61,205 nt of DNA from an uncultured Lachnospiraceae bacterium (GTDB lineage Bacteria > Bacillota > Clostridia > Lachnospirales > Lachnospiraceae). Of this stretch, positions 39,937 through 52,716 are shown in pieces. Location of the stretch: positions 1 to 61,205 of the forward strand of contig CANQYP010000001.1 of NCBI GenBank assembly GCA_947628045.1. Reading direction: 5' to 3'. The position numbers and the translations under genes were made by a program. The stretch's first letter is position 1; each line of letters starts with the position of its first letter. The notes under the pieces were generated by a model that made no database searches, was not told the origin of the DNA, and saw nothing but the letters and a program-made list of their open reading frames with translations.

Positions 39937-40292
39937 TTTCCTGCGGTACGTGGAGTGCAGCAGCGGAGCTGGGATCGCGGAGGGCTGCGATGGGAAACTT
40001 AAACATCTGCATGAGAAGGTGGAGCGTATCAAGGCGAACAGCCAGATGGAGGTGTCATACGTGAGGACGAGGGAATGGGAGCGACTGATACGGGAAGAGG
40101 GAAAAACGCGAAAATTGCTTGAAATGATCAGCAAGAAACTTCGCAAGGGCGATTCACAGGAGAAGATCGCGGATGACCTGTGCGAGGAGCTGGCAGTGGT
40201 GCAGCGATTCAGTGAGGCGCTGCAAAACTCACCGGAGCAGGATCTGGACATAGCGCTTGAATATCTGGAGAACGCTGGGGAATAGAAGAAAA
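39937..40292 (+). repeat. Copy 1 of a 356-bp direct repeat (3' end of the Rpn gene)
   Basis: Matches 41153-41508 (offset 1216) with about 9 substitutions and no indels. Confidence 0.95.
40061..40285 (+). CDS. Putative stand-alone small Rpn C-terminal protein (74 aa, RpnS-like)
   Basis: GGAGGTG SD (40048-54) 6 nt before GTG; open to the same stop; differences from copy 2 mostly synonymous. Confidence 0.55.
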   Translation: MRTREWERLIREEGKTRKLLEMISKKLRKGDSQEKIADDLCEELAVVQRFSEALQNSPEQDLDIALEYLENAGE

Positions 40293-40317
40293 ATTCGTTC
40301 GGTCAGATGCAAAGGCT

Positions 40318-40592: not shown

Positions 40593-41501
40593 ATGACTCA
40601 AACGCAAAAACTGAATAAGCAGATGCAGAAGAAGACTGTGCCGGGGAAAACGTTGCAGGAACTGAACCTGATCGACGATTTTCTTTTTGACGTGGCGACC
40701 GAGGACCTCGAGGTCTGCAAGATCATTATCGAGCTGTCCCTGAATATGAGCTTGCAGAGCATACGCTGGAGGGAGGGGCAGAAGGTCGTGCACAACCTGC
40801 CGGGACGCAGGGGGATCCGTATGGATTTCTGCGCGGAGGACACGGACGGGAACTATTTCGACGTCGAGATGCAGAAACGCAATGTCGGCAACATTCCCAA
40901 GCGTACACGCTACTATCAGGCGCTGGTGGACGCGCCGATGCTGAAGAGCGGCGAGGAGGGGTTCGACAACCTGCGACCAGTGTACATCGTCGTGATCTGT
41001 GGTTTCGACCTGTATGGGTACGGAAAGTACCGTTATTCCTTTGGCAGCTACTGTGAGGAGATTCCCGGGCTTGTCATGGGAGATGAGTGCAGGAAGATAT
41101 TCCTGAACACGAAAGGGAAGAACGCTGACGAGGTAGAGAGACCTCTGGTTGATTTCCTGCGGTACGTGGAGTGCAGCAGCGGCGCTGGGATCGCGGAGGG
41201 CTGCGATAGGAAACTTAAACATCTGCATGAGAAGGTGGAGCGTATCAAGGCGAACAGCCAGATGGAGGTGTCATACGTGAGGACGCGGGAATGGGAGCGA
41301 CTGATACGGGAAGAGGGAAAAACGCGAAAATTGCTTGAACAGATCAGCAAGAAACTTCGCAAGGGCGATTCGCAGGAGAAGATCGCGGACGACCTGTGCG
41401 AGGAGCTGGCAGTGGTGCAGCGATTCAGTGAGGCGCTGCAAAACTCGCCGGAGCAGGATCTGGATATAGCGCTTGAATATCTGGAGAACGCTGGGGAATA
41501 G
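40593..41501 (+). CDS. Rpn family / PD-(D/E)XK nuclease-like putative transposase
   Basis: LIDDFLF, GIRMDFCAEDTDGNYFDVEMQK, KRTRYYQA, VYIVVICGFD, IFLNTKG. Confidence 0.88.
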   Translation: MTQTQKLNKQMQKKTVPGKTLQELNLIDDFLFDVATEDLEVCKIIIELSLNMSLQSIRWREGQKVVHNLPGRRGIRMDFCAEDTDGNYFDVEMQKRNVGNIPKRTRYYQALVDAPMLKSGEEGFDNLRPVYIVVICGFDLYGYGKYRYSFGSYCEEIPGLVMGDECRKIFLNTKGKNADEVERPLVDFLRYVECSSGAGIAEGCDRKLKHLHEKVERIKANSQMEVSYVRTREWERLIREEGKTRKLLEQISKKLRKGDSQEKIADDLCEELAVVQRFSEALQNSPEQDLDIALEYLENAGE

Positions 41502-41508
41502 AAGAAAA
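41153..41508 (+). repeat. Copy 2 of the 356-bp direct repeat
   Basis: See 39937-40292. Confidence 0.95.
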
Positions 41509-41522
41509 TTCAGTTGGAACGC

Positions 41523-45222: not shown

Positions 45223-46002
45223 ATGGCACTGAACAAGGTAGAGATCTGCGGCGTCAACACCGCGAAACTTCCGACGCTGACCGGGGAGGAGAAGGAGTTC
45301 CTGTTTGAACGCATCAAGGCGGGCGACGAGAACGCGCGGGAGCTGTACATCAAGGGGAACCTGCGGTTGGTTCTGAGTGTGATCAAACGCTTTTCGAGCA
45401 GCAGCGAGAACGTGGACGACCTGTTTCAGATCGGCTGTATCGGGCTGATGAAGGCGATCGACAATTTCAACACAGAGCTGGATGTGAAGTTCAGCACCTA
45501 CGCGGTGCCGATGATCATCGGGGAGATCCGGCGCTACCTGCGCGACAACAACGCGATCCGCGTCAGCCGTTCGCTGCGGGACACGGCGTACAAGGCGATC
45601 TACGCGAAAGAGAGCTACACGAAAAAATATTTGCGGGAGCCGACGATCAATGAGATCGCGGAGGAGATCGGCGTGCCGAAGGAAGAGATCGTCTACGCGA
45701 TGGATGCGATTCAGAGCCCGGTCAGCCTTTACGACCCGGTATATACGGAAGGAGGAGACGCCCTGTACGTCATGGACCAGATCAGCGACAAGAAAAACAA
45801 GGAAGAGAACTGGGTTGAGGTCATTTCCCTGAAGGAGGCGATGAAACGCCTGGACGAGCGGGAGAAACATATCATTGAGCTGCGTTTCTACGAGGGGAAG
45901 ACGCAGATGGAGGTCGCGTCGGAGATCGGAATCTCCCAGGCGCAGGTGAGCAGGCTGGAAAAGAACGCGCTCAAGAACATGCGGAACTACCTGCGCGCCT
46001 AA
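45223..46002 (+). CDS. sigG: RNA polymerase sporulation sigma factor G
   Basis: NKVEICGVNTAKLP, DDLFQIGCIGL, STYAVPMIIGEIRRYLRD, SQAQVSRLEK. Confidence 0.96.
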   Translation: MALNKVEICGVNTAKLPTLTGEEKEFLFERIKAGDENARELYIKGNLRLVLSVIKRFSSSSENVDDLFQIGCIGLMKAIDNFNTELDVKFSTYAVPMIIGEIRRYLRDNNAIRVSRSLRDTAYKAIYAKESYTKKYLREPTINEIAEEIGVPKEEIVYAMDAIQSPVSLYDPVYTEGGDALYVMDQISDKKNKEENWVEVISLKEAMKRLDEREKHIIELRFYEGKTQMEVASEIGISQAQVSRLEKNALKNMRNYLRA

Positions 46003-46256
46003 CTGCACTTTTTCCGCGTCTCCTCTTCGTTGACTTCCACCAGGATGATGTCGGCGCCGATCTGGACAATGCATTTCCACGGAATGACGTACTCGTACTC
46101 TCTGCCGAGGAACCAGCAGAGCTTTCCGGGACCGGGGACGATCAGGGCGAGAATGAGCCCGGTCTTGCAGTCGATATCGAGGTCGCTGATGCAGCCGAGC
46201 GAGCGGCAGGTGCAGATATTGATCACTTCTTTTTGTTTCAGATCATAGAATCGCAT
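45999..46256 (-). CDS. YlmC/YmxH family PRC-barrel sporulation protein
   Basis: LKQKEVINI...LG.ISDLDID..TG...IPW..I..IG.DIILV. Confidence 0.9.
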   Translation of the reverse strand: MRFYDLKQKEVINICTCRSLGCISDLDIDCKTGLILALIVPGPGKLCWFLGREYEYVIPWKCIVQIGADIILVEVNEEETRKKCS

Positions 46257-46303
46257 GGACATTCCCTCAACACGAAACAGCTGTTTTATTGTATGATTCG
46301 TGA

Positions 46304-46818: not shown

Positions 46819-46828
46819 GGATCACAGG

Positions 46829-46857
46829 AAAAGGCGGGCGAAGAGCCTGCTTTTTTA
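46829..46857 (+). terminator. Putative terminator after nrdR
   Basis: ggcgggc-gaaga-gcctgct followed by T run. Confidence 0.65.
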
Positions 46858-47032
46858 TGCGCAGACCCGCGAGAGAAAAAATTTGCTGCTGTCGCGGTGC
46901 GCGGGTCACGCAGCGAGTAGGGAAAATCCACCCTGCTTGATTTAAGATTTTGCAAAAATCGGCAGAACGCTTGCGGAGAATGGTTCGGAAGTGATATACT
47001 GAAAACGGTATTTCTGTGACAGGAGAAAAGCA

Positions 47033-50000
47033 TTGAAGAGACGAATCGAACAATTGCTGAACGGAATATTTGAATATAAGGTGCCGAACCTGCGGATCGA
47101 GCCGGAAAAGCTGGAGATCCACGCGGGACCGGGGGCGGCGGCGCGCGGGAGTTTTCGTGTTGCGGCGGAGGATCACCGCAAGGTTAAGGGCTTTCTCTAC
47201 ACGTCGAGCCCGCGCATGCTGTGCGAGCCGGTCGAATTCCAGGGGACCGAGAGCGAGATCCGGTATCAGCTCGACTGCAGCGGTTTTGAGGACGGCGTCA
47301 GGGAGCAGGGCAGCATCACGCTCTGTACGGATCTCGGGGAGTATGTCCTGCCGTACGAGGTAGTGGTCGAGGCGGCGCAGCGCCACCCGGGCGCGGAGAA
47401 GATCGGGACGGCGCAGGAGCTGGCGCAGCTTGCGCGGAAGAACTATGAGAAGGCAGCCCGGATCTTCGCCACAGACGAATTTGCCGCGCGGCTTGCCGAA
47501 CGCGAACCTCAGTTCGCGGCGCTTTGCGGCAGCCTGCGCGCGCAGGAGACCGGAGCGCTGCCGCTGGAGGAATTTCTGGTCGGAACAGGCTGCAAGGAGC
47601 CGCTGGCACTTCGCGCGGAGCAGGATTCCTATGTCTGGGACGGTCTGTCCGCCCCGACGATGCAGACGATCCAGATCACGAAGAACACCTGGGGTTATGC
47701 GCAGATTACCGTCACCTCGGACGCGGGCTTTGTCCGCCCGGAGCGCAGGCAGTTCACGACGGAGGATTTCGCGGGCAGCACCTTCGGGCTGAACCTGGTG
47801 GTGGATACGAACCTGATGCATGCCGGGAACAATTTCGCGCGGATCCTGCTGAAGACAGGGCACCGGACGCTGCAGATCCAGGTGACGGCGCGCGGGGCGG
47901 AGCGCTCCCGGGCGGCGCGCGACCACCATATCCGCAGGATCATGATGAAGGAGCTGGAGTCCCTCTATGTGCGTTTCCGCCTGAAGAAGACGGATCTCGC
48001 GACCTGGGTGGAGCGCTCAGTCAGCGTGATCAACAGCTACAAAAGAGCCGGCGGACAGGACATCTACGCGGATCTGTTCCTGGTGCAGCTCTATTTCGCG
48101 GACGGAAAGAAACAGCGCGCTTTCAAGCTGCTCGAGAGCCTGGACGGCGAGCGGCGGCGCATGGACACGCCGGAGCGCTACGGATTCTATCTGTATATGA
48201 CGACCTTTTTCTACCATGAGGCGGCGTATGTCGACCGCGTGGAGGAGGAGATCGTGCGGATGTTCTCCCGGGATCAGGCAAACTGGAGGCTGCTCTGGAT
48301 CCTATTGTATCTCCAGGAGAAATACTTAAACGACGACAAGGCAAGGTACGAGGCGATCGCGGAGCAGTTCCGCCGCGGCTGCCGCAGCCGGATCCTGTTC
48401 CTCGAGGCGTACCAGATCCTGAAGAAGGATCCGTTCCTGATGCGGCGGCTCGGGGCGTATGAACTGCAGCTTTTGCGCTTTGCGCGGGAGGAGGACTGCC
48501 TGACCGCGGAGGTCATGCGCCAGACGGCGGAGCTGGCGGCGTACTCCCCGGCGTTTGACCAGCGGCTCTATGAGGTGCTGACAGACGGGTATCGCCTTTA
48601 TCCGTCCGAGGATCTCGTGAAAGCGATCTGTCTCCTGCTGATGAAGGGAGACAAGAAGGACAGCTGTTTCTTCCCCTGGTATGAGAAGGGCGTTGCGAGC
48701 GGACTTCGCCTCACGGGACTGTATGAATATTATATGGAGACGATGGACAGCCTCGACATGGACGCCATGCCGCAGGTGATCCGTATGTATTTTGCTTATG
48801 ACACCGCGCTGGATTACCGCAGGAGGGCGGCGATCTACCGCAGGATCGTGGAGAACCGGGAGGAGGATCCGCAGACCTACCGCAATTATCGGACCGCGAT
48901 GGAGAAATTCACGGCGGACCAGCTCGAGACGGCGCGGATCTCGGACGATCTCGCGGTGCTGTATCGGACGTTTTTGCGCCGGAGTTCCCTGACGAGGGCA
49001 TCCGCGGAAAAGCTTGCAAAGCTCCTGTTCAGCTACGAGGTGACGTGCGATCTGCCGGAGGCAAGGCAGGTGGTCGTGCATTCCGCGCGTTTTCGCAGGG
49101 AGCAGGCGTGGATCCTTGCAGATGGAAAAGCCTGTATCCAGATCTTCGACCCGGACAGTGCGCTCGTGCTGGAGGACACGCACGGTCGCCGTTTTCTTGC
49201 CGCCGATCTGTGCGGCGTCCGAAGAATGTTTGAGGATGAGGAGATGCTTTCCTGGTGCGTGCAGCTCTGCCCTGATTTTCCGGGACTGCTGCTGTACCTA
49301 TGTCTCCGCTGTATGGAGGCGGGACCGGTTCAGAAAAAGACGCTTTCGTATTTTGTGGTGGCATGTGAGACGGAGGCATTTTCCGACGCGTTTCGCGATG
49401 TGATGCGGAAACAGGTGATGGACTATTATGTAAACCATTTGCGGGACGAGTCGCTGCCGGAATTTCTGGAGCATATTCCATACCTCGCCTATGTGAAGGT
49501 GGACAAGGCGTCGCTGATCACGCTCCTGGCGGAGGAGGGCAAGTGCGCGGACGCGTTCACGATCCTGGACGCTTACGGGACGGAGGGCATTGCGCTGCTC
49601 CAGCTTGTGCGCATCTGCAGCCGCATGGTGCTCGAGCTGGAATTCGAGGAGAATCCCATGCTGCTGTCCCTGTGCCGCTATTGCTTTGACCGCGGCAAAT
49701 ATGACGACAAGCTGCTGCGCTACCTGCTTTTGTACTACGAGGGCTCGGTGCGCGACATGAAACAGGTCTGGCTGGCGGCGGTTCGTTTTGACCTTGACAC
49801 GATGCTGCTGGAGGAAAAGATCATAACGATGATCCTTTTCACGCGGAGCGGGACGCAGGGGTCGGAGGCGGTGTTCGAGTCCTACTGGAAGAAGATGGGG
49901 CGCAAGAAACTGTGCAGGGCGTATGTGAACCTCAAGGCATATGAGTATTTCGTCAAAGGCATTCCGGTGGCGGACCCGGTGTTCGCCTACATGGAGCGGG

Positions 50001-50587
50001 AGTACCTGTACCTGGAGCGGAAGAACCGGTCACAGGAGCAGGAACAGGTGTGTCGGCTTGCGCTTTTGCAGCATTACGCGAAGAGCCTGGAGCTCAAGCC
50101 GGAGCAGAGGAAGATCGCCGCGCAGCTGCTTGAGGAATTCGGCGCGCGCGGCATGCGGTTCGCGTTCTGGCGCCGCTTTGACGAGGATCTGCTGCGTCCT
50201 TACCAGATGGAGGGCACGGTGTTTGCGGAATATGCCTGCGACCCCGAAAGCAAGGTGACGATCTTCTATCGGCTGCGCGGCAGGCAGGAGGAGTACCGGC
50301 AGGAGACGATGAAGGATTACTTCGAGGGAATCTTCGTCCGGGAGTTTACCCTGTTTGACGGAGACGAGCTGGAATGCTATCTTGAGGAGAAGTCCGGCGA
50401 CACGCGCAGGAAGACGGATCTCTGGATCCTGAAGGCGCCGTCGGGGGCGCCGGGGCGTGTCTCGAAATACGAGGCTCTGAACCGGATCGCGCGGGCGCAG
50501 CGCGCAGACGGCAGCCGCGCGGAGGAGGAGCTGGAGACCTACCTGACGCAGGAATATCTGGCGCGTGAGCTGTTTACCCTGGTGTAA
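47033..50587 (+). CDS. Large conserved hypothetical protein (DUF5717-like): two beta-rich Ig-like N-terminal domains, helical-repeat core, beta-rich C-terminus
   Basis: 1184-aa ORF, TTG start after AGGAG SD, typical coding pattern; family name from recollection, not a search. Confidence 0.8.
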   Translation: MKRRIEQLLNGIFEYKVPNLRIEPEKLEIHAGPGAAARGSFRVAAEDHRKVKGFLYTSSPRMLCEPVEFQGTESEIRYQLDCSGFEDGVREQGSITLCTDLGEYVLPYEVVVEAAQRHPGAEKIGTAQELAQLARKNYEKAARIFATDEFAARLAEREPQFAALCGSLRAQETGALPLEEFLVGTGCKEPLALRAEQDSYVWDGLSAPTMQTIQITKNTWGYAQITVTSDAGFVRPERRQFTTEDFAGSTFGLNLVVDTNLMHAGNNFARILLKTGHRTLQIQVTARGAERSRAARDHHIRRIMMKELESLYVRFRLKKTDLATWVERSVSVINSYKRAGGQDIYADLFLVQLYFADGKKQRAFKLLESLDGERRRMDTPERYGFYLYMTTFFYHEAAYVDRVEEEIVRMFSRDQANWRLLWILLYLQEKYLNDDKARYEAIAEQFRRGCRSRILFLEAYQILKKDPFLMRRLGAYELQLLRFAREEDCLTAEVMRQTAELAAYSPAFDQRLYEVLTDGYRLYPSEDLVKAICLLLMKGDKKDSCFFPWYEKGVASGLRLTGLYEYYMETMDSLDMDAMPQVIRMYFAYDTALDYRRRAAIYRRIVENREEDPQTYRNYRTAMEKFTADQLETARISDDLAVLYRTFLRRSSLTRASAEKLAKLLFSYEVTCDLPEARQVVVHSARFRREQAWILADGKACIQIFDPDSALVLEDTHGRRFLAADLCGVRRMFEDEEMLSWCVQLCPDFPGLLLYLCLRCMEAGPVQKKTLSYFVVACETEAFSDAFRDVMRKQVMDYYVNHLRDESLPEFLEHIPYLAYVKVDKASLITLLAEEGKCADAFTILDAYGTEGIALLQLVRICSRMVLELEFEENPMLLSLCRYCFDRGKYDDKLLRYLLLYYEGSVRDMKQVWLAAVRFDLDTMLLEEKIITMILFTRSGTQGSEAVFESYWKKMGRKKLCRAYVNLKAYEYFVKGIPVADPVFAYMEREYLYLERKNRSQEQEQVCRLALLQHYAKSLELKPEQRKIAAQLLEEFGARGMRFAFWRRFDEDLLRPYQMEGTVFAEYACDPESKVTIFYRLRGRQEEYRQETMKDYFEGIFVREFTLFDGDELECYLEEKSGDTRRKTDLWILKAPSGAPGRVSKYEALNRIARAQRADGSRAEEELETYLTQEYLARELFTLV

Positions 50588-50624
50588 ACACGGGGACAGG
50601 TTCAAAAGGAGATAAGAGGGAGCT

Positions 50625-51875
50625 ATGATACAGGCGACAAATGAACTGGTGCTGGGCATGGAGCTGAACGAACAGTATGCGCAGATCACCTATTATCACT
50701 CGTCCGTGAAGGAGCCGATGACGCTGGGGGCGTCGTCGGATTCGGAGCATGCGCTCCTGCCGATGGGGCTGCGGCAGGACAGGCAGGGGAACTGGCATCT
50801 CTGGGACGGAAGGAGCGGAGACGGGATCACGGATCTGTATCGGAAGATCGCGGGACGGGAGCCGCTCGTCTGCGGCGGGAAGAGCTACGAGCCGCAGGAG
50901 CTTTTGGCGATCTATTTCAGGCGCTGCCTTGCCAAGCTGAAACTGGCGTCGCAGGACGTCACGCTGCACATTATGGTCACGGTGCGGACGCTCGACGATC
51001 TGTGGAGCGCGGTGATCGTGGAGGCGCTCGAGCGCGTCGGGCTGGACCGCAAGCAGATCTATATCCAGGACTATTGTTCTTCCTTCTATTACCATACGAT
51101 CAACCAGAAAAAGGAGCTCTGGTACCAGGACGTCGCGCTGCTGACGTACGAGGATGAGGCGATCGTCGGACAGGTGCTCCACATCGACCGCAGCACAAGA
51201 CCGGCGATCGCGATGGTGAATGAGGTCGCACGCCAGCCGATGGGCAGGGACGTGCGGGGCGGGCGCAGCGATTCCGAGTGGAAAAAGGAGAAGGATCGGC
51301 TGTTCTTTGAACTCCTGAAGAAGGTGTTTGAGCGGCGGAATGTCTCCGCGAGCTATCTGATGGGGGATTATTTCAACAAGAGCTGGGCGGAGCGTTCGAT
51401 CCAGTTCCTGTGCTACCGGCGTCACGCGTTTCAGGGACGGAACCTCTACTCCAAGGGCGCATGCTACGCGGTGATGGAGCGGGTCGGTATGATCGAGGAC
51501 CACGGGATCATTTTCGGCGGCAGGGATATGATCGAGCGCAACCTGGGCATGGAGATGCGTATCCGCGGGAAGGAGACGTATTATCCGCTGGTGAGCGCGG
51601 GGATCAACTGGTACGAGGCGCACCACGTCTGTGAATTTATTCTGGACGGGGAGCGGGAGATCCGGGTCGTCTCGCAGCCGATGACGGAGGGCGAGAGCAT
51701 TGTCCATGTGATGCGCCTTCCGGGACTTCCGTTCCGCCCGGATCGCGGGACGAGGGTGCGGATGACCGTCTGGTTTTCCTCATCGTCCTGCTGCCACATC
51801 GAGGTGGAGGATCTGGGGTTCGGCGGTCTGTACCGCTCTTCGGGGCTGAGCTGGAAACGCGCCATATGCTTTTAG
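50625..51875 (+). CDS. Degenerate Hsp70/actin-fold protein (DUF5716-like)
   Basis: Colinear but degenerate Hsp70 motifs: LGMELNEQ, IMVTV, EALERVGL, YLMG, SKGAC, LPGLPFRP...VEDLGFG. Confidence 0.7.
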   Translation: MIQATNELVLGMELNEQYAQITYYHSSVKEPMTLGASSDSEHALLPMGLRQDRQGNWHLWDGRSGDGITDLYRKIAGREPLVCGGKSYEPQELLAIYFRRCLAKLKLASQDVTLHIMVTVRTLDDLWSAVIVEALERVGLDRKQIYIQDYCSSFYYHTINQKKELWYQDVALLTYEDEAIVGQVLHIDRSTRPAIAMVNEVARQPMGRDVRGGRSDSEWKKEKDRLFFELLKKVFERRNVSASYLMGDYFNKSWAERSIQFLCYRRHAFQGRNLYSKGACYAVMERVGMIEDHGIIFGGRDMIERNLGMEMRIRGKETYYPLVSAGINWYEAHHVCEFILDGEREIRVVSQPMTEGESIVHVMRLPGLPFRPDRGTRVRMTVWFSSSSCCHIEVEDLGFGGLYRSSGLSWKRAICF

Positions 51876-51890
51876 GGGAAGGGAGCGTCT

Positions 51891-52685
51891 ATGGGGTATG
51901 ATCTGTGCCTGCTGAAACAGGCGGAAAAGCCATATTTTATCGAAAACATACGGACGGGCATCTACTCGCTCGAGGAGCTCTGCTTTTACCTCTATCACAA
52001 TGTATACCTGATCGACGAGAGCATTCTCAACGAGGGACTGTGCGACTGGATCCGGGACGAGCTGGGCTTGACGCGGCTGTACCGCCAGCTCTACGAGCAG
52101 CTTGAGAAACAGGAGGGGGCGGCGTATTTTGTGCTGCCGATCTTCCGGGAGGCGGGTTATCTGACGCATGCGCAGATGCGGGAATTTCAGGAGCAGCTCG
52201 CAAAGCTTGAAGTGCAGTCGGACGATATGAAACAAAAGCTGCGCGGCGACTATCTCTTCCGGGAGCGCATGTACGCGCGGGCGATCGGGGAGTACCGCGG
52301 TATCCTGAAACGCAGGAACCCCGGCAAGCTGGGGACGCAGTTCTACGCGGCTGTGCTGAACAACCTCGGCGCGGCGTACGCGGGGCTGTTCCAGTTCGAG
52401 ACCGCCGCGGAGTGTTTCCGCGAGTCCTACGAGCTGTCGAGGACGAAGGAGACGCTGCGCAAGTACGTCAGCGCCCTGCCGCTGTTTCTGGACGAGAAGG
52501 AATACCAGGAGCGGCTCGCAAAGCTGCGGGTGGATCCGGCGCTCATACAGGGGATCCAGGAATACAACGCAAAACTGTGCGCCGCGCCGGAGCTGAAGGA
52601 GGAGATCGCGCGCGCCGGGGAGCAGGGCGTCGGGGAAGTCCTGGAGGAGCTGAAGGAGCAGTACTGCAGGAGCACGAAAATCTAA
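51891..52685 (+). CDS. TPR-containing hypothetical protein
   Basis: RGDYLFRERMYARAIGEYRGIL and VLNNLGAAYAGLFQFETAAECFRESYEL TPR-like helices; 15 bp after the previous gene. Confidence 0.75.
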   Translation: MGYDLCLLKQAEKPYFIENIRTGIYSLEELCFYLYHNVYLIDESILNEGLCDWIRDELGLTRLYRQLYEQLEKQEGAAYFVLPIFREAGYLTHAQMREFQEQLAKLEVQSDDMKQKLRGDYLFRERMYARAIGEYRGILKRRNPGKLGTQFYAAVLNNLGAAYAGLFQFETAAECFRESYELSRTKETLRKYVSALPLFLDEKEYQERLAKLRVDPALIQGIQEYNAKLCAAPELKEEIARAGEQGVGEVLEELKEQYCRSTKI

Positions 52686-52687
52686 TC

Positions 52688-52716
52688 TTGCAATCTTGGG
52701 CTTAATCATATATACT
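52688..52716 (+). promoter_or_regulatory. sigmaA-like promoter of purC
   Basis: TTGCAA-17-TATACT. Confidence 0.6.

Follow-up and report, generated by a model that had tools for sequence, protein, structure and literature searches.

A conserved operon of Lachnospiraceae encodes a stripped-down Hsp70 relative with a predicted pseudo-substrate partner

Lachnospiraceae are among the main butyrate producers of gut and rumen. In a 61,205-nucleotide stretch of DNA from an uncultured member of this family (GenBank assembly GCA_947628045.1, contig CANQYP010000001.1, positions 1 to 61,205; henceforth the window), three co-oriented genes at positions 47033-52685 had been singled out by an initial annotation, made from the sequence alone, as a cytoplasmic complex built on a catalytically dead Hsp70 fold. 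Here, we find that these genes are a conserved, single-copy Lachnospiraceae operon with a fixed gene order, and that the product of the middle gene, a member of the family DUF5716, is, as judged from sequence profiles and a predicted structure, a true Hsp70 descendant stripped of its ATPase motifs, its lid and subdomain IIB. We propose that the three products form a static cytoplasmic complex around this apparently dead Hsp70, whose peptide groove would be plugged by the third protein, and that the complex serves as a membrane-proximal organiser; to this explanation as a whole we assign a probability of roughly 55%. The architecture of the proposed complex is its firmer part and quite likely correct, and the specific cellular role is offered tentatively, at somewhat less than even odds.

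Gene 2 (50625-51875, forward strand) is a stop-free open reading frame (ORF) of 416 amino acids and a full member of Pfam DUF5716_C (PF18980; E 1.4e-94, 316.8 bits against a gathering cut-off of 34.7). As a single sequence it matched no sequence in the Protein Data Bank (PDB), and only profiles reach DnaK: one built from 15 sequences did so at E 2.4e-5, with the segments of the nucleotide-binding domain (NBD) and the substrate-binding domain (SBD) in colinear order. The predicted structure (predicted local distance difference test score, pLDDT, 95; predicted template modelling score, pTM, 0.91; 150 alignment rows) retrieved DnaK as its top Foldseek match at E 9.9e-18, and its residues 7-416 superpose on residues 2-503 of DnaK (7kru) with Z 19.2 and a root-mean-square deviation (rmsd) of 6.8 over 384 aligned positions. 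A wide fold search was led by Sse1 (Z 18.5, rmsd 8.4, 387 aligned) and Ssz1 (Z 18.2, rmsd 4.3, 265 aligned), with ParM and the actins ranking after them; the scores of DnaK, Sse1 and Ssz1 are effectively tied, differing by about 1 Z or less (Ssz1 18.1-18.3). The Hsp70 colinearity that the initial annotation had traced by eye held up in all eight motif pairings, which fall in matching columns against DnaK from related genomes, and the combined NBD and SBD match that it had named as supportive, should HHpred or Foldseek give one, is the one given above.

Across the DUF5716 family, the phosphate-1 (DxGTT), catalytic EPxAA and phosphate-2 (DxGGG) motifs occur in none of 150 proteins and the adenosine motif (GG[ST]) in one. 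The α-helical lid of the SBD is absent as well: the gene 2 model terminates in a strand, and in the 144 sequences that have the last motif of the SBD β subdomain (SBDβ), a median of 17 and at most 30 residues follow it. Both the degenerate phosphate loops and the missing lid had been recognised by eye, while a further loss had been missed, namely that of about 80 residues of NBD subdomain IIB, which are replaced by a short loop relative to DnaK and to the sister-family B proteins described below. Subdomain IIB is the contact site of GrpE. By motifs, lid and subdomain IIB, DUF5716 thus lies outside the canonical Hsp70/DnaK class and, by its predicted fold, inside the Hsp70 structural superfamily. 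Carriers possess a separate canonical dnaK; in the genome studied here it lies on contig C146 and is cut by the contig end after 285 residues. A same-genus genome (L134) has, about 1.6 kb from its canonical dnaK, a second full-length dnaK-like gene (G547:C32:193010-194740) that scores 796 bits, below the cut-off.

The SBDβ of the gene 2 product (51537-51872, forward strand, residues 305-416) contains the predicted partner site. Residues M309, R312 and F338-D341 correspond in the alignment to the DnaK segments SxETLGG and QVFSTAA, which line the peptide groove of that protein (I401, M404 and F426-A429 in E. coli). At groove positions 309 and 338, 99-100% of DUF5716 proteins have a hydrophobic residue; R377 is kept in 143 of 150, and a DxG[FL]G motif in 144. 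The presumed partner is encoded by gene 3 (51891-52685, forward strand), a stop-free ORF of 264 amino acids comprising a conserved N-terminal strand and helical domain (residues 1-110), two tetratricopeptide repeats (TPRs, 119-184) and a helical tail. Its Pfam TPR matches stay below cut-off, and a profile of 57 orthologues matches TPR proteins over residues 120-185. The N-terminal domain has no Pfam family, and no DUF5752 match was listed for it; it was found inside none of 109 longer candidate proteins, in a search so weak that it also missed the known fusions.

Structure prediction for the pair of gene 2 and gene 3 products gave a complex score of 0.66, compared with 0.00 for the best control, and passed a mark that is reached by 116 of 157 solved pairs and 2 of 215 mismatched pairs; the runs share at least 95% of contacts, with a partner pLDDT of at least 83. 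On the gene 2 side, the predicted interface comprises SBDβ residues 309-315, 336-343, 372-377 and 399-402, including R377 and the DLGFG motif, and corresponds by alignment to the peptide groove of DnaK. On the partner side it comprises residues 1-7, 14, 22-36 and 89-92 and excludes the TPRs. The N-terminal strand of the partner, rather than its TPRs, is therefore predicted to occupy the groove of the pseudo-Hsp70, with residues 3-6 (51897-51908, forward strand, consensus L-I-L-C) as a putative pseudo-substrate whose nearest predicted contacts are F338, I339 and R312. Among 57 partner sequences, I4 is kept in 39, L5 in 45 and C6 in 51, and E29 is invariant; the strand is hydrophobic in most sister-family TPR proteins, too. 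Both interface faces are conserved above the average of their proteins (entropy 2.15 vs 2.57 and 1.76 vs 2.44, with no control for burial). Moreover, eight proteins are fusions of the gene 2 and gene 3 products, 7 of them among the 150 listed representatives and one from a further locus (L106), and the fusions together with the two-sided conservation are support for the pair that is independent of the complex model. That a TPR protein might partner the Hsp70 had been anticipated, and the binding itself is borne out by the model and the fusions. The implied TPR-clamp mode is not: unlike in Hop/CHIP-type clamps, none of the 150 DUF5716 proteins has an EEVD-like C-terminal tail, and the predicted interface lies outside the TPRs.

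The predicted arrangement resembles that of Ssz1 and Zuo1, in which, according to published work, the N-terminal LP motif of Zuo1 sits as a pseudo-substrate in the groove of the lidless, non-hydrolysing Ssz1 (PMC7083937). Both systems would pair a lidless Hsp70 with the N-terminus of a partner in its groove, and Ssz1 is among the tied top folds for gene 2. Unlike Zuo1, to which it is unrelated, the partner here carries TPRs and no J domain, and unlike DUF5716, Ssz1 binds ATP and keeps subdomain IIB. DUF5716 would also be of independent origin, from a paralogue in a bacterial operon.

To place the operon taxonomically, we scored PF18980 across Clostridia genomes. It occurs in 14 of 399 scored genomes (two more were unscored), all of them Lachnospiraceae, and in none of the 385 others; the source names of homologues are likewise Lachnospiraceae. 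Within the family, sampled at one genome per genus, it occurs in 297 of 301 genomes, with a single match in 295, and carriers include genomes of 1.4-1.6 Mb. One of the four negative genomes has the scaffold gene at a contig end, and the other three lack all three genes. We further examined 40 Lachnospiraceae loci of 20 kb each, picked from the best-scoring rows and long contigs. Gene 1 precedes gene 2 in all 40 (39 by script, the 40th by direct search), and gene 3 follows gene 2 or is fused to it in all 40. Close pairs gave ratios of nonsynonymous to synonymous substitution rates (dN/dS) of 0.02-0.08 for all three genes. With its order kept in 40/40 loci and these low ratios, the locus is conserved beyond chance, and the co-conserved module on a probably dead Hsp70 fold that had been suggested from the window alone is supported by this conservation, by the predicted fold and by the loss of motifs. 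One subgroup of loci (L070, L075, L076, L078 and relatives) has a shorter scaffold (about 1095 aa) without profile positions ~750-837, overlaps genes 2 and 3 by 26 bp and has no adjacent fourth gene of the kind described below. The initial annotation knew of no described function for these proteins. Indeed, no description of the operon was found in the main texts of the open-access literature, the genes possibly being carried under locus tags in supplements such as proteomics data or the source data of Kaur et al. 2020. The families had, however, already been named: Pfam lists genes 1 and 2 as full members of DUF5717_N, DUF5717 and DUF5716_C, in entries that assign no function, whose names do not point to Hsp70 and that say nothing of an operon. 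The parts have thus been catalogued as DUFs, and the operon is a variation on the pseudo-Hsp70 theme, of independent bacterial origin.

Insight into the ancestry of the system came from other families of the order. A profile of the gene 1 scaffold matched 102 of 201 genomes of the order, patchily by family. In a sample of the phylum, it matched none of the 278 genomes from families other than that of the window. In 20 sister loci, several of them truncated at the ends of the retrieved sequence and one (L121) limited to the scaffold pair, the scaffold is mostly split into genes of about 400 and 900 aa. These are followed, in order, by Hsp70-A, a GrpE-like coiled-coil protein, Hsp70-B, Hsp70-C, a fusion of Hsp70-D with a vWA domain, and a longer TPR protein. 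The ATPase motifs (phosphate-1, EP and phosphate-2) are present in 19/19 A, 17/17 C and 15/15 D proteins (EP in 14/15 of the latter) and in 0/18 B proteins. A, B and C end soon after SBDβ, where D carries its vWA domain, and B and C both keep a DLG[FY] motif. In a tree of 58 sequences (seven each of A, C and D, all 18 B, 16 of the 150 DUF5716 and three DnaK), DUF5716 nests within B as sister to one B protein (L115_14; Shimodaira-Hasegawa-like approximate likelihood ratio test, SH-aLRT, 99) and apart from A, C, D and DnaK (100). Judging from this tree, DUF5716 is the orthologue of the dead member B of the sister four-Hsp70 operon, and the sister-family operon is the ancestral form. The loss of subdomain IIB coincides with that of the GrpE-like gene in Lachnospiraceae, which fits together since GrpE acts on IIB.

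The first and largest gene (gene 1, 47033-50587, forward strand) is a stop-free ORF of 1184 amino acids with a TTG start and matches DUF5717_N (PF18984; E 2.6e-245, 816.8 bits vs a cut-off of 25) and DUF5717 (PF18983; E 1.3e-85, 287.7 bits vs 25). Its model (pLDDT 87, pTM 0.61, 54 rows) suggests two immunoglobulin-like (Ig) domains of the ASH/PapD/MSP type flanking a small helical domain, followed by an α-solenoid of ~760 residues with an inserted β domain, a C-terminal β sandwich and helices. Ig domain 1 (47075-47377, forward strand, residues 15-115) is matched by the MSP domain of VAP-A (Z 12.0, rmsd 2.6, 100 aligned) and Ig domain 2 (47597-47905, forward strand, residues 189-291) by a PapD-like domain of HYDIN (Z 11.8, rmsd 2.1, 96 aligned), and the two are homologous to each other (hhalign 95.6%). 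The likeness to ASH/PapD/MSP scaffolds such as HYDIN, CEP192/SPD-2 and VAP lies in these two tandem N-terminal domains of the same fold; it does not go beyond the fold (Z 10-12), which is a widespread Ig type, and unlike those proteins gene 1 continues as a bacterial solenoid with no known counterpart. Foldseek matches to the whole model were led by chains of the ciliary central apparatus at low TM-scores. None of the fold matches suggests a catalytic fold, and profiles of the scaffold, of its split N-terminal form and of the fourth gene found no solved relatives. A putative homology between the small helical domain and the N-terminal domain of the gene 3 protein was unsupported (hhalign probability 9.6%). 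Membership in the operon suggests that the gene 1 protein binds the products of genes 2 and 3 as a backbone.

None of the three window proteins has a transmembrane (TM)-like stretch, as had been noted before (highest 19-residue hydropathy 1.32, 1.22 and 1.01 for genes 1 to 3, vs 3.13 for a genuine TM protein of the system). A membrane protein accompanies the operon in part of its range. A fourth gene for a coiled-coil protein with two TM helices, without a Pfam family, comes next after the operon in 13 of 40 loci and is present in 56 of 151 family genomes. It was not found in the genome studied here, which is 91% complete, and is absent at the site 3' of gene 3. The same gene occurs in 5 of 20 sister loci, and an unrelated upstream membrane protein with a long tail occurs in eight others (hhalign 0.8% between the two types). 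This unnamed protein (L113:15028-16350, L117:3589-4926 and six more) stands first in its 8/20 sister operons and was never in the same retrieved locus as the 2-TM coiled-coil gene; it has an N-terminal TM helix, a loop, a TM hairpin and a long helical tail, a topology that by eye resembles MotA/ZorA. Its matches to ZorA itself are weak (E 1e-5), confined to the tail and far below cut-off.

Together, these observations can be read as follows. In a pseudo-Hsp70 without ATPase motifs, lid or the lobe contacted by GrpE, the peptide groove would have become a fixed socket that takes up the partner's N-terminal strand, and the 1184-aa Ig/solenoid protein would serve as the pair's backbone. Three motif-intact, lidless Hsp70s of the ancestral operon, together with a GrpE-like exchange factor of their own and a vWA domain, may have assembled or remodelled the complex with ATP, of which Lachnospiraceae would have retained the structural core only. 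An optional coiled-coil membrane protein of one of two unrelated types might tether the complex, which would be present in growing cells. We infer a housekeeping role common to the whole family and consider that of a membrane-proximal structural organiser, at the envelope, the pole or in division, the most likely one over that of a folding chaperone; a static, optionally membrane-tethered scaffold would be the best reading, with a client-relay chaperone as its main rival.

Several points weigh against this explanation. Three Lachnospiraceae genomes of 96-98% completeness lack all three genes, and the scaffold is absent from entire families of the order (0/20, 0/19 and 0/19), so the operon is not indispensable for the order. 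A membrane tether is not required, because 95 of 151 family genomes, among them the one studied here, lack the fourth gene. The first Asp of phosphate-1 is retained as D or E in 146 of 150 DUF5716 proteins, so weak residual binding of a nucleotide or metal is still conceivable. The passing complex score may reflect likeness to solved structures, since those of Hsp70 with peptide and of the ribosome-associated complex (RAC, Ssz1-Zuo1) have been determined; the conservation of the two interface faces was compared without regard to burial, the tree came from a quick search and has long branches, and operon context is what links the large protein to the pair. With respect to division, none of the conserved neighbours was seen to be a cell-division gene, and the operon shows no complementarity with FtsA: none of 66 genomes exceeds the TIGR01174 cut-off, carriers and non-carriers alike, so that the comparison is uninformative about a replacement of FtsA. 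For a replacement of DivIVA there is no pattern either: matches at E<1e-25 occur in 2 of 9 Lachnospiraceae, in 9 of 19 sister genomes that are carriers and in 13 of 26 non-carriers. As separate observations, 31 of the 66 genomes of the order have an FtsA-like ORF of 590-970 aa (88-120 bits), and 7 of the 9 Lachnospiraceae tested yielded no DivIVA; members of the order seem to divide in a non-canonical way.

The rival relay would work in a RAC-like manner: the lidless pseudo-Hsp70 holds clients weakly, the partner strand displaces them, and the scaffold passes them on to DnaK or HtpG. It would share the anatomy described above for Ssz1. Also in agreement with it are the retained hydrophobicity of the groove, the GrpE-like protein and active-type Hsp70s of the ancestral operon, and the HtpG-like gene (named by eye) that is the direct upstream neighbour in 3 of 56 loci. 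However, no J domain was seen in any scanned component, DnaJ matching neither any of the 57 partner sequences among the families listed nor the sister components, and heat-shock control is unsupported, as 48 orthologue upstream regions contain no CIRCE (controlling inverted repeat of chaperone expression) within four mismatches of the motif. Compared with DnaK-DnaJ-GrpE, the system shares the NBD and SBDβ fold, colinear sequence, a conserved peptide groove and, in sister operons, a GrpE-like protein, but lacks the ATPase motifs, IIB, lid, J protein and CIRCE. The loss of IIB and nucleotide motifs goes beyond Ssz1, which still binds ATP, and a partner strand near-invariant in hydrophobicity and fused in cis in eight proteins fits a permanent plug. 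On balance, we consider the relay unlikely. An active or domesticated anti-phage system of the kind that combines Hsp70, GrpE, vWA and TPR proteins (GAP1-N2 or Zorya-like) appears improbable. Kaur et al. 2020 (PMC7159879) describe GAP1-N2 neighbourhoods in Firmicutes with HSP70, GrpE and FNIII-TPR proteins. The likeness lies in Firmicute gene clusters that combine extra HSP70s, GrpE, β-sandwich/TPR proteins, vWA and membrane components, and the weak ZorA matches of the upstream membrane protein in some sister operons point the same way. Such GTPase-centric systems need a GTPase and GAP1, whereas no DO-GTPase or GAP1 was found in the ORF clusters shared by at least 3 of the 20 sister loci or among 28 cluster proteins compared with Pfam (unshared neighbours being left out), and no conserved or variable effector was seen. 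The three window proteins and the fourth gene have no PADLOC match at E 0.001, sister proteins having only weak generic ones, and the ZorA matches are limited as stated. The operon is vertical, universal, single-copy, fixed in location and under strong purifying selection, and the Hsp70-vWA protein is 72-79% identical across most of 120 homologues among the matches listed.

Two further roles had been proposed from the neighbourhood and the C-terminus of gene 1. The β segment there, said to resemble carbohydrate-binding modules (CBMs), is a real β sandwich (50207-50446, forward strand, residues ~1059-1138) matching CBM56 (Z 9.9, rmsd 2.0, 75 aligned; match over residues 1044-1135, with conserved aromatics), and a scaffold for glycogen granules or another glucan could be drawn from it together with glgA, which lies 18 kb upstream in the window and is present in 14 of 14 Lachnospiraceae tested. 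In the whole-protein fold search, CBM56 is tied with the non-carbohydrate Ig domain of PPAD (Z 9.2), and no Pfam CBM matches gene 1. Moreover, glgA is missing in 6 of 23 carrier sister genomes and present in 25 of 29 non-carriers, and no glg gene is among the conserved neighbours, so that the glycogen link is not upheld and we hold this role to be less probable still than a conflict system. A sporulation complex, suggested by the adjacent spoIIGA-sigE-sigG, is the least probable of all and very unlikely to be correct. The genes are neighbours in the window, spoIIGA is found in 3 and a sigG-like match in 7 of the 40 loci of 20 kb. Against this, 90 of 91 spoIIGA-negative genomes keep DUF5716 (spoIIGA, a single marker, being present in 210 of 301), and for this reason the role is rejected. 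Furthermore, PF18980 was not found in the 385 other Clostridia genomes, of which many are from sporulating species, and the operon is intact in 51 Butyrivibrio-labelled or related loci, Butyrivibrio being largely non-sporulating. A terminator separates it from the nrdR side, and its predicted promoter is of the sigma-A type.

A 5.6-kb operon found in 297 of 301 sampled genera and not outside the order is likely to represent core cell biology invisible in model organisms. It offers taxonomy a clean marker and allows a direct test of how a chaperone turns into a structural part, with sister operons keeping the intermediate steps, in which first the lid was lost, then the motifs, then IIB with the GrpE-like gene and the active paralogues. 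In the boldest reading of the system, which we regard as speculative and rather doubtful, Lachnospirales would have evolved an ATP-driven four-Hsp70 machine assembling a giant membrane-side Ig/solenoid scaffold, and Lachnospiraceae would have frozen its nucleotide-free core, the dead Hsp70 being plugged by a built-in pseudo-substrate. If true, such a structure would define the family, organise its cells, which mostly lack canonical FtsA and often DivIVA, and be near-essential to them, and bacteria would have reinvented the architecture of Ssz1-Zuo1.

The layout of the locus agrees with the initial annotation, including the gaps of 37 bp between genes 1 and 2 and 15 bp between genes 2 and 3, and none of the three proteins matches NCBIfam. 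The upstream boundary is an intrinsic-terminator-like hairpin with a U run 3' of nrdR (46826-46862, forward strand; -17.5 kcal/mol, z -3.81), which none of 200 shuffled sequences equalled in stability; it was picked up by folding energy against shuffles and missed by a consensus terminator scanner. A predicted sigma-A-type promoter with an extended -10 element follows (46971-47000, forward strand; TTGCGG, 18 nt, TG.TATACT), which is below the threshold of the general promoter scan. Such a promoter is found upstream of most orthologues, with a mean score of 9.7 in 48 loci vs 7.6-8.2 in 30 shuffles. At the downstream end, a motif scan placed a promoter-like site before purC (52688-52716, forward strand), so both proposed bounds are in place. 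Upstream of the operon lie spoIIGA, sigE, sigG, a PRC-barrel gene and nrdR, and downstream purC-purF-purB-purA (sigE, sigG and the pur genes named by eye).

A few minor observations concern the surroundings. The YlmC/YmxH-type PRC-barrel gene (45999-46262, reverse strand) is inverted, so that it converges on sigG and overlaps it by 4 bp, whereas L102, a locus from the same genus, and L072 have the two genes in one orientation. In about 18 Lachnospiraceae loci, the gene directly upstream of the operon, in most cases divergent from it, encodes a CobD/HisC-like aminotransferase (named by eye); such a gene also lies near the start of 10 of 20 sister loci, which we read as marking the operon's ancestral chromosomal position. 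Elsewhere in the window, a direct repeat of 364 bp with 97% identity (39937-40299 and 41153-41515) copies the 3' end of a PD-(D/E)XK_2 (Rpn-like) gene at 40593-41501; its upstream copy codes only for the C-terminal 111 aa of the protein, and the gene has four more distant paralogues on other contigs of the genome.

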